The notes under the pieces were generated by a model. It was not told the origin of the DNA and did not search any database. It worked only from the letters and a program-made list of their open reading frames with translations. A stretch of 64,000 nt of DNA from Candidatus Multivoraceae bacterium (GTDB lineage Bacteria; Acidobacteriota; Thermoanaerobaculia; Multivoradales; Multivoraceae). Shown piece by piece: positions 46,663 through 62,587 of the stretch (its first letter is position 1; each line of letters begins with the position of its first letter). Position numbers and translations under genes: made by a program. The DNA lies in NCBI GenBank assembly GCA_965219625.1, contig OZ244782.1, forward strand, positions 484,712-548,711, read 5' to 3'.

Positions 46663-49600
46663 TCAACGTTCGAGCCGCCCCCTCGCCGGCGGTTCGCTGC
46701 AGGCGGCGATTCGCGTGAGCTGGATCTCGTCGAACCACGCGTCGCCCTGGTTGTCCCCGTCCCGCGCGGCGCGGATCCGCACACCGCCGACGGAGGCGGG
46801 TATGCACTTCGTCACCGCCCGGCATTCCCACGCTCCGACGGAGCTGGCCACGACGTGCGCGTCCTCGAACGAAGCGTCACGGCCACGACCGTCGTCGAAG
46901 TCGACGAACACGTTGTCGCCCGCGTGCTCGCGCAGCACGCAGGCCGACAACTCGTAGACGCCGCCCTCAACCGGAATCCACTCCGCGGCGACCGCGGAAT
47001 CCGAACCCACGTCGCCGCCGGACACGGCGCCGCGAAGCAACAGGCCCCAGGAACCCGAGTCGGCCGAATCGGCCGAGGAACCCGGCCCGGCAGGCGAACG
47101 CGCAACGACCGCGTCTCCCGAATCCGACGTCCAACCTGGCGCCGCGGACATCCTCACCTCGCCGCCCTCCAACTCGGAAGCAACGTCGTCCAGGCCGCCG
47201 TTCACCACCGCCGTCTTCGGCCAGCCCGGAGAGAACGGATCGAACCACGGCGAACTCGGACGATAGGACGGCACAGGCACGAGCGACTCCTCAACCGCCC
47301 ACCACTCCGCAACTTCCCCCGGACCGGACGCCGAGCGACGCGAATACACCGCGCCACGGCCACGAGCCAGGTAGAACTCGTCGTACGCCTCCGCCCTGCT
47401 CGCATCCGCCCAGAAGCGGACCTCCAGCACGTCCTCGAACGTCAGACCGCCAACCACCGGCGCCGTGAACGACGCGTGGTGAGCGACGACCTCCAGGCGC
47501 ATCGTCGTAGCAAGAGCGCCCGCCTCGTTCCGCAGACGGTTCGACAGGTAACGACCGGTCACCGAACTCTCCAACACGTCGCCTACCGCCATGTAGCGGT
47601 TCATCCACCGGAACGGCCTGTCGAGCGACACGCTCAGGCGATCCGAAGACCCGCCCTCGACCGTGCCCCAGTAGTCCAAGCCGCCTTCCGTCTCCTCGAA
47701 CAGGTCGTACCGATCTCCCCCCGGAGTCCCCAAGAGCGCCATCGGACGGCCCCACAGCTCACCTCGCCAGAAGGACCGAAGCTCGTGGGAGTCCGCGGCA
47801 GGCCACAACCGACCGTCGACCAGGCGGCTCCGCACCCCCGAAGCGCTCCCGTGAGGCGACAGCCAGTACTCGAACATGTCGAACAGGTCGCCCGACGTCG
47901 TCGAGGGCTCGGACGAATCGGATGGCTCCACCAGCCCGGGATCCACTCCGCCGGCACGCGACGACGCGGCGGCCGAACCGACGGCCCCCTCGGACACCTC
48001 GATCGTGAACGTAAGCGTCGCCGAGTTCCCGTTCCCGTCCGACGCCGTGTACGTGTACGCCGTCTCCGCCTGAACCGCCGTCGGCGTACCGGACAACGTC
48101 CGCGTCGACGCGGAGAAACTCACGCCCGCCGGAAGGCCAGGCGTCACCGCGTAACTCAACGCGCCGCCCGTACCGGTCGCCGCCGGCAAGACGACGGACC
48201 CAACCGCCTCGTCCCTCACCCATGTCTGCGCCGCGATCGTCTCGTCCCCGAACGACGGGTCCTCCACCGCGATCGTCACGCTTCCCGTCGACTCGCCGAA
48301 CCACGCCACGCCGTCATGCACCATCTTCCACTCGAACGCATGCGGGCCTACCGTCGACGGCGCCGTGATCTCCAACGTGAAGTCCACCGTCTCTCCCGGC
48401 CCGACGCTTGCCGACACGTCCGCGTCGTCCGCGCTCGCCGGCAGCTCCACACGGTTCAAACCCCACGTCACGTTGTCTTGAGGGTTCTCTGAGCCCAGCC
48501 GGTACCCCTCGGCTTCCGTCCACGTCGTCGTCCCCACATTCTTCATCGTCACCGTCACCGACGCCGTCGAACCCGCCGCCATCTTCGAAGGCACACCGGA
48601 CGTCGACACGAAGGACGCATCGTCCACCAGGACCGCCTCTACCGTCATGCTGAACGTCAACGACGCCGAATCCCCGCCCGCGTCCGTCGCCGTGTACACG
48701 TACGCCGTCGTCGCCATCGCGTCCGTCGGCGTACCGGAGATCGTCCGCGTCGACGCGGAGAAACTCAAACCCGCCGGCAGTGCAGGAGAGAGCGAGTAGC
48801 TCAACGCACCGCCCCTACCGCTTGCCGCCGGCAAAACGACCGCCTCGATTGCCTCATCCTGCACATACGTCGCGTCCGCGATCGTCTGATCACCGAACGA
48901 CGGGTCCTCCACCTCGATCGTCACGCTCCCCGTCGGCTCGCCGAACCACGCCACGCCGTCATGCACCATCCGCCACGCAAACGCGCGCGCGCCGACCGTC
49001 GACGGCGCCGTGATCGTAAACGTAAAGTCCACCGTCGCGTTCGGCACAACGCTCACAGGACCGTCCGCGCTGACCGGCAGATGCGCCCGATTCGTACCCC
49101 ACGTCACGTTGTCCTGAGAATCCTGCGAGCCCAGGCGATACAACTTCGCCTCCGTCCACGTCGTCGTCCCCACATTCTTCATCGTCACCGTCACCGACGC
49201 CGTCGAACCCGCAACCATCTTCCCCGGCACACCCGACCAAGAGACGAACGATGCGTCGTCCACGGGAAACGCCGCCACCCTGATGCTGAACGTCAACGAC
49301 GTCGAATTCCCGGCCCCGTCCGTCGCCGTGTACGTGTACGCCGTCGCCGCTTGAACCACCGTCGGCGTCCCGGACAACGTCCGCGTCGACTCCGTAAACG
49401 TCAGCCCCGCTGGCAGCGGAGGAGTCACCGCGTAACTCAACGCACCGCCCGAACCGCTCGCCGCAGGCAACACGACCGGCTCGATCGGAACGTCCTTCAC
49501 ATACGTCTGGTCGATGATCGTCTGATCACCGAACGATGGGTCCTCCACCTCGATCATCACGCTGCCCGTCGACGAGCCGAACCACGCCACGCCGTCGCGA

Positions 49601-52600
49601 ACCATCCGCCACTCGAACGCATGCGGGCCTACCGTCGACGGCGCCGTGATCTCGAACCTGAACTCCACCGTACCCTTCGGAGGCACGATCACCGGAGCGT
49701 CAACGCTCCCCGGCAGATGCGCCCGATTCGTCCCCCACGTCGTGTTGTCTCGAACGCTCTCCGAACCCAGACGATAAAGCCCCGCCTCGGCCCACGTCGT
49801 CGTCCCCACATTCTCCATCGTCACCGTCACCGTCGCCGTCGAACCCACTGCCATCTTCGAAGGAACCCCGGACGTCGACACGAACGAAGCGTCGTCCACC
49901 GGAATCACCTCCACCTCGATCGCCCCCCCGCTCGGCGTCGACGAGCCGAACCATGCCACGCCGTCACGAACCATCTGCCACACGAAACCGTAGCTCCCAG
50001 CCGCCGACGGCGCCGTGATCGTGAACGTGAACTCCGCCGTCGTGTTCGGCGCCACCTCGCCAGGCAACGGCACCCGGTTCAAACCCCACGTCAGGTTGTC
50101 CTGATTGCCTTGCGAACCCAAGGAGTACCGATCCGACGACCGCCACGTCGTCGTACCCACATTCTCCATCCGCACCGTCACCGACGCCGTCGTACCCGCC
50201 GCCATCTTCGACGGAACCCCAGACGTCGACACGAACAACGCGTCGTCCGCCGACACCGACGCGACCCGAATGTGAAACGCAAGCGACGCCGAGTTCCCGG
50301 CCCCGTCCGTCGCCGTGTACGTGTACTCCGTCTCAGGCATCGTCGCCGTCGGCGTCCCCGACACCGTACGCGTCGACTCCGTGAAACTCACACCCGCCGG
50401 CAGGGCAGGAACGAGCGAGTAGCTCAACGCTCCGCCCGTACCGCTCGCCGCAGGCAACACGACCGGCTCGATCGGAACGTCCTTCACCCACGTCTGGTCG
50501 ACGATCGTCGCGTCGCCGAACGACGGGTCTTCCACCTCGATCGTCACGCTACCCGTCGACGAGCCGAACCACGCGACGCCGTCGCGGACCATCTGCCACT
50601 CGAAAGCTCGACTGCCCGTCGTCGACGGCGCCGTCATCGCCAACGTGAAGTCCACCGTCGTGTTCGGAGGCACGCTGACGGAACGGCCGGGAGCCTTCGG
50701 GTCCGCTGGCAGAGACACCCGATTCACACCCCAGGTCAGATTGTCCTGAACGTTCTGCGAACCCAGGCGATAGGAACCCGTCTCGCTCCACGTCGTCGTC
50801 CCCGCATTCTCCATCGTTACCGTCACCGCGAACGTCGAACCCGCAGCCACCTTCGAAGGTACCCCCGACCAAGACACGAACGAAGCGCCGTCACGAGACA
50901 CCGCCTCCACCGTGATGTGGAACGTCAACGACGCCGAATTCCCCTTCCCGTCCGTCGCCGTGTACGTGTACTCCGTCTTCGGCATCGTCGCCGAAGGAGT
51001 CCCCGACACCGTCCGCGTCGACTCCGTGAAACTCACTCCCGGCGGCAGAACAGGAACGAGCGAGTAGCTCAACGCTCCGCCCGTACCCCTCGCCGCAGGC
51101 AACACGACCGGCTCGATCGGAACGTCCTTCACCCACGTCTGGTCGACGATCGTCGCGTCACCGAACGACGGGTCCTCCACCGCGATCGTCACGCGACCCG
51201 TCGACAAGCCGAACCACGAAACGCCGTCGCGCACCATCTGCCACTCGAAACCGTAGCTACCCACGACCGCCGGCGCCGTGATACCGAACGTGAAGTCAAC
51301 CGTCGCACCCGGAGCCACCTCGCCGGGCAACGGCGCACGATTCCGACCCCACCTCACGTTGTCCTGCGGATCCTGCGAACCCAGACGGTACTCGCCCGAA
51401 GGCGTCCACGTCGTCGTCCCCTCGTTCTTCATCCGCACCGTCACCAAAGACGTCGTACCGGCAACCATCTTCCCAGGCACACCAGACCACGAAACGAACG
51501 ACGCATCGTCCTCCAACGACGCAACGACTTCGATCGTGAACGTGAGCGACGCGGACGAACCAACCCCGTCCGTCGCCGTGTACGTGTACTCCACCGCGTC
51601 CTGCAACTCCGTCGGCGTCCCTGACACCGTACGCGTCGACTCCGAGAAACTCACCCCCGTCGGCAACGCAGGCGTCAGCGAGTAGCTCAAAGCCCCGCCC
51701 GTGCCGCTCGCCGAAGGCAACACGACCGGCTCAAGGGGCACGTCCTTCACCAGCGTTTGATCCGGAATCGTCCAGTCGCCGAACGACGGGTCTTCCACCT
51801 CGATCGTCACGCTACCCGTCGACGAGCCGAACCACGCGACGCCGTCGCGGACCATCTGCCACTCGAAAGCTCGACTGCCCGTCGTCGACGGCGCCGTCAT
51901 CGCCAACGTGAAGTCCACCGTCGTGTTCGGAGGCACGCTGACGGAACGGCCGGGAGCCTTCGGGTCCGCTGGCAGAGACACCCGATTCACACCCCAGGTC
52001 AGATTGTCCTGAACGTTCTGCGAACCCAGGCGATAGGAACCCGTCTCGCTCCACGTCGTCGTCCCCGCATTCTCCATCGTCACCGTCACCGCGAACGTCG
52101 AACCCGCAGCCACCTTCGAAGGTACCCCCGACCAAGACACGAACGAAGCGCCGTCACGAGACACCGCCTCCACCGTGATGTGGAACGTCAACGACGCCGA
52201 ATTCCCGGCCCCGTCCGTCGCCGTGTACGTGTACTCCGTCTTCGGCATCGTCGCCGAAGGAGTCCCCGACACCGTCCGCGTCGACTCGGAGAAACTCACC
52301 CCCGTCGGCAGAGCAGGCGTCAGCGAATAGCCCAACGCTCCGCCCGTACCCCTCGCCGCAGGCAACACGACCGGCTCGATCGGAACGTCCTTCACCCACG
52401 TCTGGTCGACGATCGTCGCGTCACCGAACGACGGGTCCTCCACCGCGATCGTCACGCGACCCGTCGACAAGCCGAACCACGAAACGCCGTCGCGCACCAT
52501 CTGCCACTCGAAACCGTAGCTACCCACGACCGCCGGCGCCGTGATACCGAACGTGAAGTCAACCGTCGCACCCGGAGCCACCTCGCCGGGCAACGGCGCA

Positions 52601-55600
52601 CGATTCCGACCCCACCTCACGTTGTCCTGCGGATCCTGCGAACCCAGACGGTACTCGCCCGAAGGCGTCCACGTCGTCGTCCCCTCGTTCTTCATCCGCA
52701 CCGTCACCAAAGACGTCGTACCGGCAACCATCTTCCCAGGCACACCAGACCACGAAACGAACGACGCGTCGTCCACAACGAACGCCGCCACCTCAAGCGA
52801 AAACGGAAGCTCAGCCGCGTCACCGTCACGGTCCGTCGACATGTACGTGTACCCCGTCTCCGGCTGAACCTCCGTCGGCGTGCCAGAAAGCACCCGCGTC
52901 AAGCCGTCGAACTCCAAACCCGAAGGCAGCGACTCGACAACCTCGTACGTCAGCTCCCCGTTCCCGCCAACCGCCGCCGGCAGCGTCACCGGAACCATCG
53001 GCTCGTTCAGGGTGAGGAACTGCGGAACGATCGTCTGAACCCCGAACTCCGGCGCCGAGTCCTCCTCCACCGCGATCAACAACGGGAGCGAATCCTCGTC
53101 TCCGTCACGGTCCCCAACCGTGTACGCATACTCCGTCGCCGGCTGAACCGCCGTCGGCGTGCCGGAAAGCACTCGCGTCGCGGCCTCGAACTCCAAACCC
53201 GAAGGCAGCGACTCGACGATCGCGTACGTCAGCTCCCCGTTCCCGGCGACCGCGGACGGCAGCGTCACCGGCGACATCGGCTTGTTCAGGCTGAGGAACA
53301 GCGGATCGATCATCGTGACCTCGAACCCAGGAGCGGAGTCCCCTTCCACCTCGATGCTGACGACAAGCGACGCCTCGTCGCTGTCGCGGTCCGTCGCCGC
53401 GAACGTGTAGTCCGTCGCCGGCTGGGCCGTCGTCGGCAGGCCGGAGAGACCGCACGGCGGGGTCGGGTCGAGCGTCACACCCGCCGGCAACGCGGGAGAC
53501 TCCGGCGCCACGGAACATGTCACGTCCGCATTCCCGCCCGTCACGCCGAGGCTCAGGTCGACCGACGTCCTGCCTTCCGTCCACACGACCGGACTCTCGA
53601 CCGCGCCGAACGTCGGCGTCGTGTCCGGTTCCACCTCGATCGTCAACAGGAGCCAATCCTCGTCACCATCGCGGTCCGCAACCGTGTACGTGTAAGGCGT
53701 CTCCGGCTGCACCGCCGTCGGCGTGCCGGAAAGCGCCCGCGTCGTAGCCTCGAAGGCCAAACCCGAAGGCAGCGACTCGACGATCGCGTACGCCAGCTCC
53801 CCGTTCCCGGCGACGGCCGACGGCAGCGTCACCGGCGACATCGGCTTGTCCTGGCTCAGGATCAGCGGAGCGATCGACTCGTCTTCGAACCCAGGAGCGG
53901 AGTCCCCTTCCACCTCGATGCTGACGACAAGCGACGCCTCGTCGCCGTCGCGGTCCGTCGCCGCGAACGTGTAGTCCGTCGCCGGCTGGGCCGTCGTCGG
54001 CAGGCCGGAGAGACCGCACGGCGGGGTCGGGTCGAGCGTCACACCCGCCGGCAACGCGGGAGACTCCGGAGTCACGGAACATGTCACGTCCGCATTCCCG
54101 CCCGTCACGCCAAGGCTCAGGTCGACCGACGTCCTGCCTTCCGTCCACACGAGCGGACTCTCGACCGCGCCGAACGTCGGCGTCGTGTCCGGCTCCACCT
54201 CGATGCTGACGACGAGCGTCGCCGTGTCCCCGTCGTAGTCCGTCGCCGTGAACGTGTAGTCCTCCGCCCCTTGAACCGCCGTCGGCGTACCCGAGAGAAT
54301 GCACGGAGCGGTCGGCTCGAGCGTCACGCCCGAGGGCAGCGCGGGAGACTCCGACGTCAACGTGCATGTCGGCCCGAAATTGCCGTCCTCCAGGCCGAGA
54401 CTCACCTCGACCGGTCGGTTCTCCGTCCAGACCTGACTCCCGACCTGCCCGAACACCGGAGACGTGTCCGGCACGACGCCGATCGTGAACTCCCGCGAAG
54501 CAACGTCACCGTCGTCGTCCGTTGCCGTCCACGTGTACGTCCTCGGCGCCTGCGGCGCCGTCGGAACACCCGAAATCACCCGGCCCGACCGGGACATCCC
54601 AGCCGGCAGAACGGCGGAGAGACTGTACGTCAACGGCTGGTTCCCGCCCGTCGCCGCCGGCAGCGTCATCGAGCCCGGATAACCGACGATCCACGTCCGC
54701 GAGGGGAACCACTCCAGGACCGGCGTCTTGTCTTCCAAGACCGTCACGGTCACCGTCGCGGATTGGTAAACCTCGGGGCCGGCCAGCGTGATCAACCATA
54801 TGCCGGCCTCGTGGCCATATGCCGGCCTCGTGGCCGCTCACCGACACCTGCTGCGGCGAAGAGTAGTTCGATGCGTCGAAGTCCAGGCTGGAGGGACTCG
54901 CCGACACCTTCGAGATGTCCTCCTCGGTCACCGTCACCGTAGCGCCACCCGTGGACGGCGGCTCTGACAGGGACGCTCCGAAGGTCACCGACTCCCCCTC
55001 GATCACGGTCAAGTACAGAGGTTCCGGCGGACCGAGATCATCCAAACGAATCGTACCTAAATCAATGTACGGGCGCGGTTGGTCGACCACCGTTACGTCC
55101 ACCGTCACTGTCGAGTCGCACCCGCCGCCGATTGAAGTCAGGGTGACCGAGGTCTGCTCGTCGTTCCGGTCGTCGTCCCACACACCTTCCAGCGTAATCT
55201 GCTGCGCGGCCGCACTCGTGAATTGGAGGGGCGAATCGGAGGCGTTCTTCAGCTTGACCGCGCCCAGATCGTTGATTACGACGGGCACATTTACCCGGCC
55301 TGTCGGCGTCCTGGACAGCGAGACGGTCAAGTCGGCTTCGCCGCCTTCGACCAAGACCAGCGGATTCGGCGACACGACCAGACTGCACGGCGGCCCGACC
55401 GTGATGTCGAACGTCACGACGCCCGCGTCGGTCGGGGCCGTGTTGCCGTCCGCGTCCGTCGCCGTGAACGTGTACGCCGCCGTGTCCTCATCCGCAGACG
55501 GCGTCCCCGACACCGTGCATGACGAAGCGTCCAGCGACACCCCTGCCGGCAATGCCGGCGCGTTCGAGCAGGTCACATCTCCATTGCCGCCCGTCACCCC

Positions 55601-56272
55601 GAGGTCCAGATCGACAGCCACACCCGTCGTCCAGTCCTGATCCGCGATGCTCCCGAACGTCGGCACCGTGTCCGTACCCACCCAGATCGTCCGGGCCGAC
55701 GTCGAGTCGCCGAACGGCGTCGAGCCGACGAAACCGGAAACCGCGGGCGAGGACGCAACAACAGGTCCCGGATTCGGGCCCGGGTTCGTCTCGGTGATCC
55801 TGCGCATGCGAAACTGAAAGCTGTAGCTCCCAGCGGTCGAAGGCGCCGTGATCGTGAACGTGAAGTCGTGGACGGCGTCCGGCGCCACGGTGCCGAAGAC
55901 CGGCACGCCGGCCACTGTCGACCCGCTGTCGAGACCCCAGGTATCGCCGACCCAAAACAACGTAAAGAACGTCACTGTGTTCGGGAGGAACCGAGTCGAC
56001 CAGCTCTGCGTCCCCGTGTTCTTCATGCGGACCGTCACTGTCCTCGTCTCGCCGGGCGACATGAACTCCGACGCGGACGGCAAGCCGGTCCAGGACACGA
56101 ACTCCGCATCGTCGGCGCCCATCGCTGGCGACACCATGAAGCCGAGCGCCAGACAAGCCGCCGCGACCGCCACAAGCCGAGTCCCACCGTGGTGCTGCAT
56201 CGTTCTGCTCCCGCTCATCATCCGCCTCCTCGCGTCTGATTCACTACCGCTCATCCGAACCGTCCTCTTCAA
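46663..56272 (-). CDS. giant secreted cell-surface repeat protein (~3,200 aa): signal peptide, FW domains alternating with CADG/He_PIG Ig-like domains, CBM4/9-like C-terminus; frameshifted here by a 19-bp tandem duplication
   Basis: ORFs 54506-56272 and 46663-54795 fuse in frame (…SVSGHEAGIW|LITLAGPEVYQ…) when one copy of the 19-bp repeat at 54797-54834 is removed. N-terminal signal peptide (MKRTVRMSGSES…LALGFMVSPAMGA). At least 20 repeats of the LPxGxxFxxxTRxxSGTPTxxQxxTxYTYTATDxxGxxAS type (dystroglycan-type cadherin-like). Repeats with four or five conserved Trp residues (ASFVSWSGVP…NxGTTTW…YRLGSQ…WG…FEWQMVRDGVxWFG) match the FW/NBR1-like domain. The C-terminus ends …GDAWFDEIQL, like CBM4/9 modules. 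Confidence 0.8.
50512..53037. repeat. two tandem near-identical 1,263-bp (421-aa) units inside the giant gene; each unit encodes FW-CADG-FW-CADG
   Basis: Shadow ORFs 50549-50872/51812-52135, 50891-51136/52154-52399 and 51296-51490/52559-52753 are pairwise near-identical with a constant 1,263-bp offset. The encoded protein shows two ~421-aa blocks that are almost identical. Unit boundaries are approximate. Confidence 0.7.
54797..54834. repeat. perfect 19-bp tandem duplication (CATATGCCGGCCTCGTGGC x2) inside the giant gene, causing a +19 frameshift
   Basis: Units at 54797-54815 and 54816-54834 are identical. Deleting one unit restores a single reading frame across 46663-56272. Confidence 0.9.
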
Positions 56273-58320
56273 CTACGCCCAGCCCGCCAGCCGGCGCACC
56301 GACTTCGCCCGACCGCGCCTCGCACACCTCCGAAAACGCGGTCACGTCGACCACCGCGGCAGACGGTTTGCCGGCCTCCCGTCTGTATCTCTTGGACTCA
56401 TACGTCTCCAGGTCCAAGACACCGAGAGAGAGCCGCAGGTCCGTCGCCGAGGCCGCGAGCACCCAATGGTGACCGTTCACCGCACAGCCGTCCAGCACCT
56501 TGACGAGCACCTCCCAATTCTCCGGGCCGAAGAAGTAGACGATGCCCGACTCGTCCGTGCCTACAGAGGCTACCCTCGCGCCTATACGCTCCCCCGTCTC
56601 TGACCAGTAGTCCACCCAGACCGAGTAACGACGATTCCGGAGACACAGCCTCGTTTCCGTCGGCACGCACGGGCCGACCGCCTCCTCCGCCACAACAGAA
56701 ACCGGCGCCTCGGCCGCCGCCGACCAGCCGCTCCCATCCGACAACGAAGCAGCAGCGGCGGCAGACGCCGCCCCAGCCTCCGAGCCGTCGCAGGCCCTCG
56801 GAAACGCGTTCACGTCGACGATCGCCGGCGCCGGAGACCCCGGCTCGTTCTCGTACGCGCGGAACGCACCCGTCGCCGTGTCCGTTACCCGAATCCGGTA
56901 CCCGAGGTCCGTCGTCGACGCCCCGAGCACCCACACCCGGCCGTTCACCGAACAACCGTCGAGCACCTTGATCAAGACCTCCCAGTTCTCAGGGTCAAAG
57001 AAAGACAGCAACCCCGAGTCGTTCGTACCCACGGGAACGACCGCCGCCCGCCCCGAATCCCCGTCCAGGCTCCACCACTCCGCCGTCACCTCGAAACGGG
57101 AATCCCGAAGGCAACGCGTCTCCCCGTCCGCAGCGCACGTCCCCGCCGGAGACGCCGCCTCGACGAACACCGTCCGCGAAGCGGATGACGAATCCGAACC
57201 GTCGCTAAACGTCAGAACCACTTCATAGAACCCCGGGGAGGACCAGGAGTGGACCGGCGACTCCAGCCGAGACGTCGTCCCATCGCCGAAGTCCCACGTC
57301 CGCTCCGTCGCTGAAGCGTCGCTCGTATCGACGAACGTGACCGGTTCGCCCGTCACCGTGCGGCAGAGCTCCGCCCCCGCACAAGGCGCACCGAAGTCGA
57401 ACGAAGGCGCAGGAATCGCAACCGTACGCGCACGCACCGTCGCCGGCGGACCGGCGCCGCGCCCCGTCCACGCCCGCACCTGGAACGCGTACTCCCTACC
57501 CGGGTCGAGCCCCGTCGCCCGGTAGCTCCCGGATTCGTTCGGCACCGTCTTCCAGCGGTCCTCCGCAACGTCGAACGGAAGCTCCCGCGCCGGCTTCCAA
57601 CGAACCTCCTGCCGGCCTGCCGTAATCGGCGATTCCACTTCCCATGTCAGATCGACCGCCACGCTCAAGGCCGACGCCGAAAGACCAACGATCTTCGGCG
57701 GCGGAGGGCGCCAGGAACTCCGAGAGTAGCCGCGATCGTTGAACGCGAACACGCGGAACATCTTCCCCGCAGGCACGACGGCCGTCTCCACGTCCGCGGA
57801 CACGACCAGCGCCCTCCTCCAGATTTCGGCGCCATTGCTGACCTGGACTTCAAAGCCCGTCTCGTCGTCCGAGTTGTCGCGCCAGCGAAGCCGCACTGTG
57901 TCACCGAGCCGCTCTTCCGTAACGCCCGACGGCGCCTCAGGCCCGAAACCCCGCGAACCCAGCGTCAGCCGGCCGTATGAAGCTGAACTGCTCTTGCCGG
58001 GGCGATGGGCGACGGCGGTGAACACATAGCGGCCGCCGCGCGCCAAGTTCTCGAAGTCCACCCGACCGCGACCCTCGGCGACCTGAACCGAATCGCCCCA
58101 CCCCTCCAAACTCGCGAAAACCGAGTGAGACTCGGCCTCTGCGTCGGGCGCCCAGGAAACCCGTGCCGTCGTCGGACCGGCGGCGGTCACCGCAAAGCCC
58201 GCGACGCCGAGCGCGGCGTCTTCATCGCCCGAAGGCAACGTCACGACATCGCTGCTCTCGGATTCGCCCCACTTGTTCCACGCGACCACCTGCACGCCGT
58301 ACTCCGCGTTCGCGTCACGC
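56135..58320. repeat. segmental duplication, copy A (3' ~2.2 kb of the metalloprotease gene plus the first 138 nt of the giant gene)
   Basis: Near-identical to 60440-62587 at a 4,305-bp offset (identical shadow ORFs 56398-56955 / 60703-61260). Identity is 100% over the 3' ~1.3 kb and decays toward the 5' side. Confidence 0.85.
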
Positions 58321-60134
58321 CCAGGCACGAAGCCGAAGAACCGAAAGGACTCGCTGTTCGCCGGCGCCTCTCTCCTGAAGACCACCTCGCCGGCCCGCAG
58401 GAGGCGCACATCGAAGCCCGTTTCATTGTCCGAATTGTCCCGCCAACGGACATCCAAGCTGTTCGGCGGGAACGTCACCGAAACGTCCGAAGGCGCCGCA
58501 ATCGGATCGCCAGGCAACCAGATTCCAGCCCAGTCGCTCCACAGCGACCGAGCCGAGCCGACCAACGAACGCACCCGGAAGTGGTAGATGCCAGGAAGGT
58601 CTCCTCCCCCGAAAGACCACTCCGCCTCCGTCCGCCCCTCAGCGCGCCGGATGTCCTGCCACCCCGTCAGCCTGTTCACGCGCTCCACCTCGTAGCCGTC
58701 CCCGTCCGCGGCGCTGTCTTCCCAGCTCAAGCGAGCCGACGAACCGTCCCGTTGCAACCGAACTCCGGTCGGCTGAGCCGGGATGTCCGCCGGCGGCAAG
58801 TAATCGCTGTACCGCACGCCGACGTGGACCGTCTCCCGCAGCAAACGCTCGTTGTCCCGCTCGCCTTCGATCCCCAACACCGCCCCGTACAAACGAAGCC
58901 GCGGCGTCGAGTAGAACGGCTCGGTCTGGCCGCTCAGGCTCATCGCCGTACCCAAGGCCGGCATCGCGTCGTAATCCACATGGCCATATGCATACGGCCA
59001 CCGGCTCGGCGCCCGCCAACCTGGCGGTTGGTGGCCAGCGCCCAGACCGTGGCCCACCTCGTGGACGAACGTCGCAGCGTAGTCACCGCCGCACGCCGAC
59101 GGGTGGTTCGACGTATAGCCGCGGGCATAGGGAGAGAAGCTCTCCGCCGTAAAGAAGGGGCGCAACCATCCGTGTAAACCGCAGCCCGCCACCCCCGGCA
59201 GCGACCCACTCTCCCCTGTAAACAGGTGCACCAGGTCCGCCCGATGCTCGTGACGTAACCGCTGGAGCTCCCCGTCCCAGACGATCAGGTCGATCAGGCC
59301 GATTCCCGCGTCCAACTCCGGCCTGCTCAGATCCCGCCCCGCACGGTCCAGCGTCGACGAAGCCTCGACGACGTGCACGATGCGGGGCGTCACCTCAAGG
59401 CCGTTGTTCCGGAACACGAGCGATAAGTAATCGGCCGCGTGCTGGATCGCAATCTCCGCTCCGCCGATGGGCGCCCAGTACTTCGCAGCCTCCTTCGTGT
59501 ACGCGACGAGGATGTCCAGGTAATCGTGATCGCGGTGGCTCTGATGGCTCGCCGTCCCGCGCGGCGCATCCGCGCCGCGGCCAGCCGCATTCGCACGGCT
59601 CTCCGCCCCGACGCCCGCCGCGGCCTCCTCCTCTTGCTCCACACCGCACCACGGCTCCCCTTGACCCGGCCCGGCCCCGCCCAAGGGCGACATCCCGCCA
59701 AGGCCGTCCGAAGCCGAATGGATCCGATACGCACCGCCCCCAGGAGCCCCGAAACGCCCGATCAGCCGCCCTTCGTGAATCGTCAGGACGACCGTGTCGT
59801 ACCCGGCCTCGCGGTTCCCCCCGAACCAGACCCCATCCCCGTTTCCCCGGTCCTCGAAGGCGGAACGTTCGGCGTAGATCACATCACCGTCCGGCGTCGG
59901 CGCCTCGAGAACCAGGGGAGCGCTACGAAGAAGATCCAAGTCCGCCTGAATCGCAGTCACCGGCGCCGGACCCATCGATCCCCCGCCCTCCACGGACGAC
60001 GCTTCCGCCACGGAAGGCAAGAGCGTCAGCAAACGCTGAGCCTCCACCGGCAACGCCGCCAGCCAGACGAACACCACGGCGAACGGCAGAGCCGCGAGCC
60101 GGCGAACAGCGGGCAGGGGGCGCGGATTGGACAT
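56244..60134 (-). CDS. secreted reprolysin-like zinc metalloprotease with Fn3 repeats, a PKD domain and twinned C-terminal domains of unknown family (paralog A)
   Basis: Signal peptide (MSNPRPLPAVRRLAALPFAVVFVWLAALPVEAQ; ATG at 60134 preferred over the GTG at 60158). HEVGHGLGAGHQ with the Met-turn AMSLSG. Fn3 repeats. PKD (WDFGDGTTS…GFYEVVLTFSDG). Two C-terminal ~115-aa repeats (CLRDSRFEV…SFFDPENWEVLIKVLDGCSVNGRVW…; CLRNRRYSV…YFFGPENWEVLVKVLDGCAVNGHHW…). The stop overlaps the giant-gene start by 29 nt. Confidence 0.8.
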   Translation of the reverse strand: MSNPRPLPAVRRLAALPFAVVFVWLAALPVEAQRLLTLLPSVAEASSVEGGGSMGPAPVTAIQADLDLLRSAPLVLEAPTPDGDVIYAERSAFEDRGNGDGVWFGGNREAGYDTVVLTIHEGRLIGRFGAPGGGAYRIHSASDGLGGMSPLGGAGPGQGEPWCGVEQEEEAAAGVGAESRANAAGRGADAPRGTASHQSHRDHDYLDILVAYTKEAAKYWAPIGGAEIAIQHAADYLSLVFRNNGLEVTPRIVHVVEASSTLDRAGRDLSRPELDAGIGLIDLIVWDGELQRLRHEHRADLVHLFTGESGSLPGVAGCGLHGWLRPFFTAESFSPYARGYTSNHPSACGGDYAATFVHEVGHGLGAGHQPPGWRAPSRWPYAYGHVDYDAMPALGTAMSLSGQTEPFYSTPRLRLYGAVLGIEGERDNERLLRETVHVGVRYSDYLPPADIPAQPTGVRLQRDGSSARLSWEDSAADGDGYEVERVNRLTGWQDIRRAEGRTEAEWSFGGGDLPGIYHFRVRSLVGSARSLWSDWAGIWLPGDPIAAPSDVSVTFPPNSLDVRWRDNSDNETGFDVRLLRAGEVVFRREAPANSESFRFFGFVPGRDANAEYGVQVVAWNKWGESESSDVVTLPSGDEDAALGVAGFAVTAAGPTTARVSWAPDAEAESHSVFASLEGWGDSVQVAEGRGRVDFENLARGGRYVFTAVAHRPGKSSSASYGRLTLGSRGFGPEAPSGVTEERLGDTVRLRWRDNSDDETGFEVQVSNGAEIWRRALVVSADVETAVVPAGKMFRVFAFNDRGYSRSSWRPPPPKIVGLSASALSVAVDLTWEVESPITAGRQEVRWKPARELPFDVAEDRWKTVPNESGSYRATGLDPGREYAFQVRAWTGRGAGPPATVRARTVAIPAPSFDFGAPCAGAELCRTVTGEPVTFVDTSDASATERTWDFGDGTTSRLESPVHSWSSPGFYEVVLTFSDGSDSSSASRTVFVEAASPAGTCAADGETRCLRDSRFEVTAEWWSLDGDSGRAAVVPVGTNDSGLLSFFDPENWEVLIKVLDGCSVNGRVWVLGASTTDLGYRIRVTDTATGAFRAYENEPGSPAPAIVDVNAFPRACDGSEAGAASAAAAASLSDGSGWSAAAEAPVSVVAEEAVGPCVPTETRLCLRNRRYSVWVDYWSETGERIGARVASVGTDESGIVYFFGPENWEVLVKVLDGCAVNGHHWVLAASATDLRLSLGVLDLETYESKRYRREAGKPSAAVVDVTAFSEVCEARSGEVGAPAGGLGVVEEDGSDER

Positions 60135-60301
60135 TTCGACTGAAAACCACCTTAGCACCCCTGCACGCCTTTCCCCACAGGAGCTGCGAGAAACCGCCGA
60201 CAGCCATGCCTGTCAAGCTCGTGGCGACGGCGCTGCCCGTTACGGAAGCGCTCGCAAACCTCCCGGCCCGCCACCAGGGGCACCAGCCAGTTGCCGGCGT
60301 T

Positions 60302-60577
60302 CTATTCCCTCTCCCACGTGGTCGTTCCCGTGTTCGACGCGACGACCGTCACCGTCGCCGACCCGCCGGGAGCGATGAAGTCCGGAAGAACGGGTTCCGT
60401 CACGATCGCCGCATTGTCTGCGCCGCGGACGGCCGTCGACATGAAGCCGAGCGCCAGACAAGCCGCCGCGACCGCCACAAGCCGAGTCCCACCGTGGTGC
60501 TGCATCGTTCTGCTCCCGCTCATCATCCGCCTCCTCGCGTCTGATTCACTACCGCTCATCCGAACCGTCCTCTTCAA
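60302..60577 (-). pseudogene. truncated remnant of the giant gene's 5' end (signal peptide + partial FW domain, 91 aa) created by the segmental duplication
   Basis: The first 46 codons are identical to the giant gene start (MKRTVRMSGSES…LALGFM). It then diverges (…ASNTGTTTWERE*) and stops. It overlaps the upstream paralog B stop by 29 nt, like the parental arrangement. Confidence 0.6.
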
Positions 60578-62587
60578 CTACGCCCAGCCCGCCAGCCGGC
60601 GCACCGACTTCGCCCGACCGCGCCTCGCACACCTCCGAAAACGCGGTCACGTCGACCACCGCGGCAGACGGTTTGCCGGCCTCCCGTCTGTATCTCTTGG
60701 ACTCATACGTCTCCAGGTCCAAGACACCGAGAGAGAGCCGCAGGTCCGTCGCCGAGGCCGCGAGCACCCAATGGTGACCGTTCACCGCACAGCCGTCCAG
60801 CACCTTGACGAGCACCTCCCAATTCTCCGGGCCGAAGAAGTAGACGATGCCCGACTCGTCCGTGCCTACAGAGGCTACCCTCGCGCCTATACGCTCCCCC
60901 GTCTCTGACCAGTAGTCCACCCAGACCGAGTAACGACGATTCCGGAGACACAGCCTCGTTTCCGTCGGCACGCACGGGCCGACCGCCTCCTCCGCCACAA
61001 CAGAAACCGGCGCCTCGGCCGCCGCCGACCAGCCGCTCCCATCCGACAACGAAGCAGCAGCGGCGGCAGACGCCGCCCCAGCCTCCGAGCCGTCGCAGGC
61101 CCTCGGAAACGCGTTCACGTCGACGATCGCCGGCGCCGGAGACCCCGGCTCGTTCTCGTACGCGCGGAACGCACCCGTCGCCGTGTCCGTTACCCGAATC
61201 CGGTACCCGAGGTCCGTCGTCGACGCCCCGAGCACCCACACCCGGCCGTTCACCGAACAACCGTCGAGCACCTTGATCAAGACTTCCCAGTTCTCAGGGC
61301 CGAAGAAAGACAGCAGGCCGGAATCGTTCGTACCCACGGGAACGACCGCCGCCCGCCCCGAATCCCCGTCCAGGCTCCACCACTCCGCCGTCACCTCGAA
61401 CCGGGAGTCCCGAAGGCAACGCGTCTCCCCGTCCGCAGCGCACGTCCCCGCCGGAGACGCCGCCTCGACGAACACCGTCCGCGAAGCGGATGACGAACCC
61501 GAACCGTCGCTCACCGTCAAGACGACCTCGTAGAAACCCGGCGTAGACCACGAGTGGACCGGAGACCGCAAACGTGACGTCGTCCCGTCGCCGAAGTCCC
61601 ACGTCCACTCCCTCGCCGAGGAATCGCTCTCGTCGACGAATGTCACCGGCTCGCCCGTCACCGTGCGGCAGAGCTCGGAACCCGCGCACGGCGCCCCGAA
61701 GTCGAACGACGCCGCGGGAATCGAGGCTGTCCGCGCACGGACCGTCACCGGCGGGCCGGCGCCCCGCAACGTCCACGCCCGCACCTGGAACGCGTACTCC
61801 CTACCCGGGTCGAGCCCCGTCGCCCGATAGCTCCCGGATTTGTTCGGCACCGTCTTCCAGCGGTCCTCCGCAACGTCGAACGGAAGCTCCCGCGCCGGCT
61901 TCCAACGAACCTCCTGCCGGCCTGCCGTAATCAGCGATTCCACTTCCCATGTCAGATCGACCGCCACGCTCAAGGCCGACGCCGAAAGACCAACGATCTT
62001 CGGCGGCGGAGGACGCCAGGAACTCCGAGAGTAGCCGCGATCGTTGAACGCGAAGACGCGGAACATCTTCCCCGCAGGCACGACGGCCGTCTCCACGTCC
62101 GCGGACACGACCAGCGCCCTCCTCCAGATTTCGGCGCCATTGCTGACCTGGACTTCAAAGCCCGTCTCGTCGTCCGAGTTGTCGCGCCAGCGAAGCCGCA
62201 CTGTGTCCCCGAGCCGCTCTACCGTAACGCCCGACGGCGCCTCAGGCCCGAAACCCCGCGAACCCAGCGTCAGCCGGCTGTATGAGGCTAAACTACTGCT
62301 GCCGGAGCGGTGGGCGGAAATCGAAAACACATAGCGGCCTCCGCGCGCCAGGTTCTCGAAGTCCACCCGACCGCGACCCTCGCCAACCCGAACCGAATCG
62401 GAGGACCACCCGTCCAAACTCGGCCGAACCCAGTGATAGTCGGCCTCTGCGTCAGGCACCCAGGAAACCCGCGCCGTCGTCGGACCGACGGCCGTCACCG
62501 TCAAGCTCGCGACGCCGGGCAAGACCTCCGCATCGCCCGTAGGCAACGTCACGACATCGCTGCTCTTGGATTCGCCCCACTTGTTCC
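60440..62587. repeat. segmental duplication, copy B
   Basis: See copy A. Copy B continues for ~48 bp after the IS insertion (63929-63976), then diverges from copy A. Confidence 0.85.
60549..62587 (-). pseudogene. reprolysin-like metalloprotease paralog B, 3' portion; interrupted by an ISL3 insertion
   Basis: C-terminal 430 aa are 100% identical to paralog A. The PKD and Fn3 regions are progressively divergent. The reading frame runs into the IS at 62588. Homologous sequence resumes after the IS at 63929 and continues past the window end. Confidence 0.75.

Follow-up and report, generated by a model that had tools for sequence, protein, structure and literature searches.

A locus on the minus strand of the window (the whole 64,000-nt stretch of Candidatus Multivoraceae DNA analysed here) probably encodes one giant secreted fibrillar-adhesin-like protein, with an Ig-like stalk and a glycan-binding C-terminal tip, that acts with M12 proteins at the cell-host interface. 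The suggestion of an adhesive or polysaccharide-binding role comes from the architecture, in which an FW/NBR1-like domain comes immediately after the signal peptide and is succeeded by the remainder of ~26 β-sandwich modules and, finally, by a two-domain C-terminal head. Among giant Ig-repeat surface proteins, a class already known, this architecture is new and well defined, and it does not overturn current ideas.

Gene structure and the 19-bp duplication

The features that define the gene are as follows.

46663..56272, minus strand: whole gene, as two overlapping ORFs (54506..56272 and 46663..54795)
54796..54835, minus strand: perfect 19-bp tandem duplication CCACGAGGCCGGCATATGG, 2.1 copies, shifting the frame within a conserved β repeat

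As written, the window presents ORFs of 588 and 2710 codons in different frames with a 290-nt overlap. Both lie on the minus strand within the bounds 46663-56272 given in an earlier note on this DNA, and the motifs quoted there (FVSWSG...TTTW...WG...FEWQMVRDGVxWFG and ...DGDNQGDAWFDEIQL) are present in the translation. Deletion in silico of one 19-bp copy yields a single frame of 3196 codons, with a probable start at ATG 56221, preceded by GGAGG 4 nt to its 5' side, and a product of ~3179 aa. The repaired junction, ...SVSGHEAGIWLITLAGPEVYQSATVTV..., aligns unbroken with intact homologues. At the sequence level the two ORFs are halves of one gene, because the repaired frame is colinear across the junction with these homologues, which are single ORFs of 2483-3145 aa built on the same plan (signal peptide-FW-He_PIG...(He_PIG-FW)n-tail). 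Reconstruction is required because of one specific lesion, the 19-bp tandem duplication. The overlapping, out-of-frame arrangement could in itself be taken to indicate two truly separate genes, with the giant protein an artefact of reconstruction, but this is very improbable: the break falls within a conserved domain, an exact repair takes no more than the removal of one copy of a perfect repeat, the sequence so restored is colinear with single ORFs in at least six relatives, and the downstream ORF has no signal peptide.

The copy in this genome is possibly inactivated. If the duplication is real, it would split the gene after residue ~486, limiting export to a 588-aa secreted N-terminal fragment and turning the fibre off. 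A recently inactivated pseudogene, in a strain that does not make the fibre and at a locus that is decaying or switched off, is a serious prospect, if one we rate at somewhat under even. The duplication is perfect, tandem and not a multiple of 3 in length, and it lies outside any homopolymer, which in our judgement makes a long-read error less likely. Paralogues in relatives are likewise broken into several ORFs, and the locus carries further remnants of rearrangement, namely a truncated leader with an FW stub (60305-60577) and a segmental duplication of 1.95 kb. Against inactivation, the 2710 downstream codons are fully open and their domains intact, so that the duplication must have arisen very recently, vary within the population, or be an artefact of assembly or consensus. 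A metagenome scan for the junction sequence, seeking an intact allele, gave no match. The pseudogene question bears on the condition of this one copy and leaves the ancestral function of the protein aside.

Signal peptide and the run of Ig-like domains

The N-terminal and stalk regions of the frame-corrected protein contain the following features.

56117..56221, minus strand: leader and Sec (SPI-type) signal peptide, MMSGSRTMQHHGGTRLVAVAAACLALGFMVSPAMG followed by ADDA, assigned by inspection and by conservation in relatives
55751..56107, minus strand: FW/NBR1-like domain 1 at the mature N-terminus, aa 56-174 (PF16158 at 31 bits, cutoff 28, and own HMM)
55397..55663, minus strand: He_PIG domain 1, aa 204-292 (PF05345, E=3e-9, and own HMM)
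54718..55396, minus strand: two β-rich repeats of ~105 aa each without a family, aa 293-512, broken by the 19-bp duplication
52786..54717, minus strand: seven tandem He_PIG domains of two sequence subtypes, aa 513-1156
47992..52767, minus strand: alternating block FW2-H9-FW3-H10-FW4-H11-FW5-H12-FW6-FW7-H13-FW8-H14-FW9-H15, aa 1163-2754
50242..52767, minus strand: recent internal tandem duplication of a 1263-bp FW-H-FW-H unit (copies 51505-52767 and 50242-51504)

The sole hydrophobic segment of the protein is the signal peptide, ending in AMG/ADDA (the slash marking cleavage), and relatives share its layout (...LFLALGLVAGAASG/GDNAAFVSY). The earlier proposal of a signal peptide is thus borne out by a single N-terminal hydrophobic stretch with a cleavage layout matching that of the relatives. 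A lipoprotein anchor via Cys40 was rejected: a lipobox is absent, since this Cys is not conserved, and the relatives have classical AxG/AxS cleavage sites. No other transmembrane-like segment is present in the protein, no outer-membrane secretion signal was found, and a Pfam search of both ORFs at E<=0.01 returned no anchor, autotransporter, RTX or T9SS family. An extracellular destination is predicted from the family-conserved layout of the signal peptide and from the neighbouring secreted M12/fn3/PKD proteins.

Between signal peptide and tail, the modules comprise 15 He_PIG domains, nine FW domains and the two unassigned β repeats, joined by short linkers. The unassigned repeats (aa 293-512) have no Pfam match better than E=0.009; the same repeat type occurs in relatives in variable copy number. 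Over the whole protein, Pfam detects both major families far above chance, He_PIG at E=2e-118 (14+1 stretches in total) and N_BRCA1_IG at E=3e-58. Single He_PIG copies, representing three subtypes and He_PIG 2, score 29.1-53.2 bits against the PF05345 gathering cutoff of 24 bits, in agreement with the description of these repeats as cadherin-like. Their number had been put at more than 20, which is too high: 15 are counted with Pfam and our own HMM, and a total of 24 Ig-like domains is reached only by including the nine FW domains.

The Trp-rich repeats are, on profile evidence, N_BRCA1_IG/FW domains. Scored singly with PF16158 (N_BRCA1_IG; gathering cutoff 28 bits), copies reach 31.0, 35.4 and 39.1 bits, and the whole protein scores 195 bits over eight stretches, as against 38 bits for CARDB. 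A profile of the FW copies run against 177,635 PDB sequences retrieves only ILRUN (6VHI, E=0.0035) and NBR1 (4OLE, E=0.055), matches that are weak but specific. The FW/NBR1-like assignment made from the letters is therefore upheld by the Pfam cutoff, by the far weaker CARDB score and by PDB matches confined to FW structures. CARDB, DUF4832, Nis1 and NPCBM_assoc were rejected as alternatives for this domain, all giving much weaker overlapping matches, and a phmmer search of one FW-He_PIG pair against the PDB gave chance antibody matches only. In the alignment with 4OLE, the second, third and fourth Trp (TTTW, WG and FxWxM) coincide, and the first (HWRMKN) is V or T here; the FW copies have extra Trp residues at FVSW and WFG.

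Eight of the nine FW domains alternate with He_PIG. The regular alternation noticed earlier in the central part of the protein holds for aa 1163-2754, with one exception, the adjacent pair FW6-FW7. Repeat periods in the DNA of this block are 618-645 nt, and the two copies of the 1263-bp unit are 94% identical, with identical FW parts and every difference in the He_PIG parts. The run of Ig-like domains would form an extended stalk, in which the FW domains would serve as structural modules and possibly also as protein-binding surfaces.

Giant RTX/T1SS adhesins, such as LapA, SiiE and MpIBP, have megadalton-scale rows of Ig-like extenders, and their sugar- or ligand-binding modules lie close to the C-terminus, which is the end distal to the cell. 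The present protein resembles this general picture of RTX adhesins in its extender rows and its putative C-terminal binding module. Unlike them, it has an N-terminal Sec signal and other extender families, and Pfam detects no HemolysinCabind (RTX) repeat, T1SS signal or N-terminal retention module. A closer parallel may be drawn to fibrillar adhesin-like proteins, for which the published criteria are a tandem-domain stalk and a terminal adhesive region, often with no detectable anchor; about half of those catalogued lack a recognisable anchor (Monzon et al. 2021, PMC8286594). The fibrillar-adhesin-like reading follows from these criteria: the protein shares with the catalogued set a very long single chain, an Ig-like tandem stalk, a non-repetitive putative binding terminus and a predicted extracellular destination (PMC8286594). 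It differs from them in a stalk that strictly alternates two unrelated Ig-like families, the FW6-FW7 pair apart, and in a putative head that is an unannotated two-domain module.

Use of FW/NBR1 as a stalk element was not described in the literature searched. The bacterial FW proteins described in that literature are single-FW proteins, several with the FW domain after an XRE DNA-binding motif (PMC3357945, PMC9233695). The domains studied here resemble FW of NBR1 and ILRUN in passing the PF16158 threshold and in three of the four canonical Trp positions; they differ from these and from the XRE-FW proteins in being predicted to be extracellular, in occurring as nine copies interleaved with He_PIG, and in replacement of the first canonical Trp. 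A bacterial domain without known function appears here as a presumably secreted nine-fold unit paired with He_PIG in a gene family conserved in Thermoanaerobaculia-type MAGs, which suggests that it plays a structural or binding role outside the cell. One FW-He_PIG pair offers a tractable construct.

The C-terminal tail

The tail had been described as ~770 aa of non-repetitive sequence. It measures 442 aa and contains two domains.

47251..47895, minus strand: tail domain D1, all-β, without a family, aa 2787-3001, ~215 aa (AF2 pLDDT 91)
46696..47220, minus strand: tail domain D2, divergent CBM4/9-type jelly roll, aa 3012-3186, ~175 aa, ending ...GDAWFDEIQLTRIAAC

Searches of the tail sequence against the PDB and Pfam were empty. 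D1 has no Pfam or PDB sequence match, even by profile, and Pfam assigns nothing to the tail or to D2 alone with limits relaxed to E<=10 and E<=0.1, so that the CBM_4_9 (PF02018) gathering threshold of 25.9 bits is not reached. An AlphaFold model from a shallow alignment of 13 close homologues (pLDDT 44) was discarded and a deeper alignment used instead. In the resulting predicted structure, the β-jelly-roll fold of D2 superposes on solved CBMs. More distant tail homologues approach the CBM_4_9 threshold with 17.6-22.1 bits, and eight of 18 D2 sequences match CBM_4_9 at E<=0.1, the best at E=9.4e-6. The D2 family profile also gives a weak match to 1K42, the CBM4-2 of a Rhodothermus marinus xylanase (E=1e-3), with positions 5-161 of 166 aligned to 6-163 of 168. 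Predicted fold and profile both support a CBM4/9-type jelly roll as the last part of the tail. The CBM4/9-like character proposed earlier accordingly stands for the last ~175 aa by fold and profile; it does not extend to the preceding ~215-aa domain, and the window's own D2 is below every Pfam threshold.

The reference jelly rolls belong to CBM4, CBM9, CBM16 and CBM22, with R. marinus Xyn10A CBM4-2 (1K42/4BJ0) and CBM16 (2ZEW) as examples. D2 differs from these in its low sequence identity (~15%), in the four Cys and altered motifs of this clade's copy, and in always being coupled to the preceding ~215-aa β domain with no glycoside hydrolase attached. Pfam finds no CAZyme domain in the protein. 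The clade's D2 has NGGLDD and YELSAC where NGxFE and YRLSGW are typical of the family, and its ability to bind a ligand could for this reason be altered or missing.

Stand-alone secreted proteins of ~400 aa, with signal peptides, cover D1 and D2, which makes the tail an autonomous module; cluster look-ups return only "hypothetical protein" annotations. With a confident model and a stand-alone secreted form, D1-D2 is an unannotated family outside Pfam coverage and a candidate for a new lectin or CBM family. In the giant protein, D1-D2 would be the distal ligand-binding tip and might bind a glycan, e.g. a polysaccharide of the host's matrix or mucus, or an exopolysaccharide of microbial origin.

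Neighbourhood, distribution and alternative functions

The gene directly upstream of the giant gene is the following.

56244..60158, minus strand: secreted M12/reprolysin-like metalloprotease (HEVGHGLGAGH) with fn3 and PKD

A gap of 22 nt separates its stop codon from the ATG of the giant gene. M12/fn3/PKD genes adjoin the giant gene in most relatives as well, and their products share a conserved Cys-containing C-terminal repeat. The giant protein may cooperate, at the interface between cell and host, with these secreted M12 metalloprotease-fn3-PKD proteins encoded beside it.

The taxonomy of the relatives places the present genome with Thermoanaerobaculia-type Acidobacteriota. The giant fused form was found only in MAGs of Thermoanaerobaculia or 'Ca. 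Multivorans' and in others that carry the labels Vicinamibacteraceae and Acidobacteria. Several of the closest relatives are MAGs that we take, from their isolate names, to be sponge- or coral-derived, and only through these relatives does a host association of the present genome suggest itself. Attachment genes of the cadherin and fn3 kinds are reported to be enriched in sponge-associated MAGs (Robbins et al. 2021, PMC8163846). The protein is like the large secreted cadherin-like and fn3-type proteins of sponge-associated bacteria, Acidobacteriota among them, that were read in that study as attachment factors; the study is a domain census, and the FW/He_PIG/tail architecture is not described in it (PMC8163846).

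The same architectural logic would hold for a matrix or aggregation fibre, which would mediate contact between bacteria or retain the cell's own exopolysaccharide as a biofilm scaffold rather than adhere to a host. Alginate, porphyran and hyaluronan are among the many polysaccharides to which CBM-like folds bind. A Thermoanaerobaculia MAG whose record names no host contains stand-alone tail homologues, and in some contigs such homologues lie near GT2/GT4, GT9 and GH44 genes. The neighbourhoods of three such homologues are, however, not conserved and give no functional clue, the giant fused form has the limited distribution described above, and the giant gene adjoins reprolysin-like protease genes. 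We regard a matrix fibre as an unlikely but credible alternative to the host-directed adhesin.

A cellulosome-like extracellular scaffold, in which FW domains dock the co-encoded M12/fn3/PKD enzymes and the CBM-like tip targets the complex to polysaccharide, seems improbable. Eukaryotic FW is a protein-recognition module, and the FW domain of Nbr1 binds cargo protein termini (PMC9233695); here FW is the most strongly homogenised part of the repeats, with 100% DNA identity between the duplicated units, and the M12/fn3/PKD genes are conserved neighbours with their shared C-terminal repeat. Recent duplication or gene conversion explains the identical FW copies equally well, however, and bacterial FW has no known ligand (PMC3357945, PMC9233695). 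The chances are similarly slim for the more specific version in which the fibre displays the M12/fn3/PKD proteins via FW and a D1-D2 lectin head aims it at host glycans. Were the scaffold real, it would represent a host-matrix-remodelling assembly in animal-associated Acidobacteriota and would give bacterial FW domains their first functional context. The fibrillar-adhesin-like protein with a glycan-binding tip remains the preferred reading.

A promoter and terminator scan gave background-level signals, and neither Rfam nor a tRNA scan returned a match in the window. The locus also illustrates gene turnover, by way of the frameshifting 19-bp, the 1.26-kb internal and the 1.95-kb segmental duplications.

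Reading frame and recent duplications

The giant gene is disrupted in the genome of this window. It is laid out as two ORFs in different frames, with an overlap of 290 nt, together with a short duplication:

54506..56272, minus strand: ORF 1 of the giant gene, 588 codons
46663..54795, minus strand: ORF 2 of the giant gene, 2710 codons
54796-54835, in the minus-strand gene: perfect tandem duplication of 19 bp (19-mer CCACGAGGCCGGCATATGG)

The 19-mer has no other occurrence within the window. Three-frame translation shows the peptide GHEAGIW in two frames, and deletion of one 19-bp copy yields a single 3196-codon frame, with a repaired junction, QQVSVSGHEAGIWLITLAGPEVYQSATVTV, that is colinear with uninterrupted homologues in an alignment across it; a reading as two separate genes rather than one giant gene is essentially excluded. 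Given that the reading frame stays open for 2710 codons downstream, the frameshift must be a very recent event, a polymorphism, or an error of assembly. A metagenome scan found no instance of the junction sequence. Translation most plausibly begins at the ATG at 56221. A GGAGG lies 4 nt ahead of this codon, the stop of the upstream gene 22 nt ahead, and the product would be ~3179 aa long.

The 19-bp duplication is a third recent event at the locus, besides two larger ones that involve the four-tryptophan, NBR1-like (FW) and cadherin-like He_PIG (H) domains or the neighboring genes:

50242-52767, minus strand: 1263-bp tandem duplication of an FW-H-FW-H unit
56135-58090 and 60440-62395, minus-strand genes: 1.95-kb segmental duplication, 844 bp of it perfect
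56244-60158, minus strand: secreted 1304-aa metalloprotease-like protein directly upstream, with reprolysin-like matches, fn3, PKD, and the metzincin motif HEVGHGLGAGH at aa 366
60305-60577, minus strand: remnant ORF (FW stub), immediately upstream of the gene for that protein

Between the two 1263-bp units, the FW-coding DNA is 100% identical; the 79 differences are all in the He_PIG parts. Gene conversion of FW, diversification of He_PIG, or consensus collapse could each explain this pattern. The 1.95-kb segment takes in ~615 codons at the 3' end of the two upstream fn3/PKD genes, a 22-nt spacer, and the first 46 codons of the giant gene (leader and signal peptide). An identical copy of this leader opens the remnant ORF, followed by a degenerate FW start (…ADNAAIVTEPVLPDFIAPGGSATVTVVASNTGTTTWERE) and a stop codon. 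This short stub is the only FW sequence in the window outside the giant gene, and He_PIG and tail sequences are confined to that gene. Pfam has no family for two ~100-aa Cys-containing C-terminal repeats of the 1304-aa protein. The second upstream gene encodes its 742-aa fn3/PKD paralogue, and most loci of relatives also have homologues of both beside the giant genes. Housekeeping genes (TPR, TrpD-like, CinA, GuaA, ThiD) lie downstream.

Domain architecture and predicted export

Pfam assigns He_PIG (PF05345, E=2e-118, 14 stretches) and N_BRCA1_IG/FW (PF16158, E=3e-58, 8 stretches) to the large ORF and one domain of each kind to the N-terminal ORF. Searches with HMMs derived from the repeats of the protein itself locate 9 FW and 15 He_PIG domains, in the layout signal peptide - FW - H - [220 aa] - H×7 - (FW-H)×4 - FW-FW-H - FW-H - FW-H - [442-aa tail]. 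The earlier note had described a real feature, and as far as the domains go its interpretation has support, though the counts change: 15 He_PIG domains replace its more than 20 cadherin-like repeats, and the tail shrinks from its ~770 aa to 442 aa. The alternation of FW and He_PIG that it reported is borne out by the (FW-H) units, with one FW-FW exception. Its domain names are also right, as single copies of FW (31-39 bits versus a Pfam threshold of 28) and of He_PIG (29-53 bits versus 24) exceed the thresholds and rival Ig-like families score much lower. CARDB, DUF4832, Nis1, and NPCBM_assoc were rejected for the Trp-rich domain in Pfam, with scores far below FW. The only PDB matches of the FW-copy profile are ILRUN (6VHI) and NBR1 (4OLE), and in the alignment to 4OLE three of the four canonical tryptophans are matched.

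The 220-aa segment consists of repeats of another type:

54718-55396, minus strand: two ~105-aa beta-rich repeats

Their pattern is L.V.EGG…F.V.L…P.G.V.V…SL.F…Y…Q.V.V.G..D.D, for which Pfam has no family. This repeat also occurs in relatives in varying numbers, and it appears to fill larger unassigned middles in loci L007-L013, such as the 1182-aa gap of L009.

The sole hydrophobic segment of the giant protein, residues 32-50, precedes AMG|ADDAEFVSW, and the N-terminus of relatives is laid out alike (LFLALGLVAGAASG|GDNAAFVSYSG). By these features the N-terminus is predicted to be a classical Sec signal peptide and the giant polypeptide to be secreted, with an FW domain at the beginning of the mature protein. 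A lipoprotein anchor via Cys40 is unlikely because this residue is not conserved in relatives, and no cell-surface anchor was found in the giant protein.

The two-domain tail

Neither Pfam nor a PDB sequence search gave any match to the tail. A word-indexed search of 5.8 billion proteins returned only 12 close homologues, several with He_PIG and/or FW domains, and an exhaustive profile search added more distant relatives. Stand-alone ~400-aa proteins with a signal peptide span the whole module at 28-36% identity. Two stand-alone homologues, P0102 and P0111, carry long C-terminal extensions of Cys-rich repeats (…CGxxGGxYCSQxxxCPxGYxxLGxxxDCxxCC…).

The AlphaFold model of the tail has a pLDDT of 44 on a shallow alignment; with the distant relatives included, it reaches a pLDDT of 91.4 and a pTM of 0.86. 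It comprises two all-beta domains, D1 (~residues 1-200 of the model) and D2 (~residues 260-397). Fold searches were queried with the whole two-domain model, not D1 or D2 singly, and returned CBM16 (Foldseek, TM 0.74) and phage tail-fibre CBM-cenC modules (viral library), the output leaving the matched domain unspecified in both cases. A D2-only profile matches the Rhodothermus CBM4-2 structure 1K42 over the full length (E=1e-3). From these fold matches and the D2 profile match, the earlier suggestion of a CBM4/9-like end holds for the last ~175 aa at the level of fold and profile, but not as Pfam-level membership: CBM_4_9 matches are sub-threshold in 8 of 18 D2 homologues (best E=9.4e-6), and the window's own D2 has none. 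D2 of the window's clade contains four Cys, with NGGLDD and YELSAC in place of the usual NGxFE and YRLSGW. For D1 no family was detected, profile search included.

Relatives and proposed role

A scan of species-representative genomes with the tail as query identified 14 loci (58-67% identity; one to three copies per genome), none of them in the window's own genome. They lie in Acidobacteriota MAGs labelled Thermoanaerobaculia, 'Candidatus Multivorans' (placed in Thermoanaerobaculia by taxonomy), Vicinamibacteraceae isolate Plut_88883, and Acidobacteria isolate COS1_bin_13. The isolate names, read with the host list in PMC8163846, suggest an origin in coral (Porites lutea) and in sponge (Coscinoderma). 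In at least 6 of the 14 loci the ORF is intact, 2483-3145 aa long, and follows the plan of the giant gene (signal peptide, FW-H, variable middle, (H-FW)n-H, 415-461-aa tail), and the architecture recurs in ~17 further cluster representatives. Like the window's gene, several paralogues in relatives are broken up into at least two ORFs; those at L001/L010, L002, and L016 are in chromosome-level MAGs that also have intact paralogues. This suggests frequent inactivation in the family or recurrent assembly errors. For the window's copy, one rival reading is a recently dead pseudogene.

The polypeptide consists of ~26 beta-sandwich modules, with two domains forming a head at its end; the last domain has a CBM fold. 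An extended stalk of Ig-like modules would present a glycan-binding tip. This stalk-and-tip reading agrees with the published definition of fibrillar adhesin-like proteins, roughly half of which likewise have no recognisable anchor (PMC8286594). It is also in line with the finding that genes for attachment by cadherin and fn3 domains are enriched in MAGs from sponges (PMC8163846). Less likely rivals are a biofilm or EPS fibre and, at lower probability still, an enzyme-recruiting scaffold. The FW domain of Nbr1 recognises protein cargo and its N-terminal di-glycine (PMC9233695).

The giant protein is a new architecture, clear and testable, within the known class of giant Ig-repeat surface/adhesin proteins. 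Its lectin-like head belongs to a family without annotation, and its FW domains would be used outside the cell, which is unusual; bacterial FW proteins described to date include single-FW ones with the domain after an XRE DNA-binding motif (PMC3357945).
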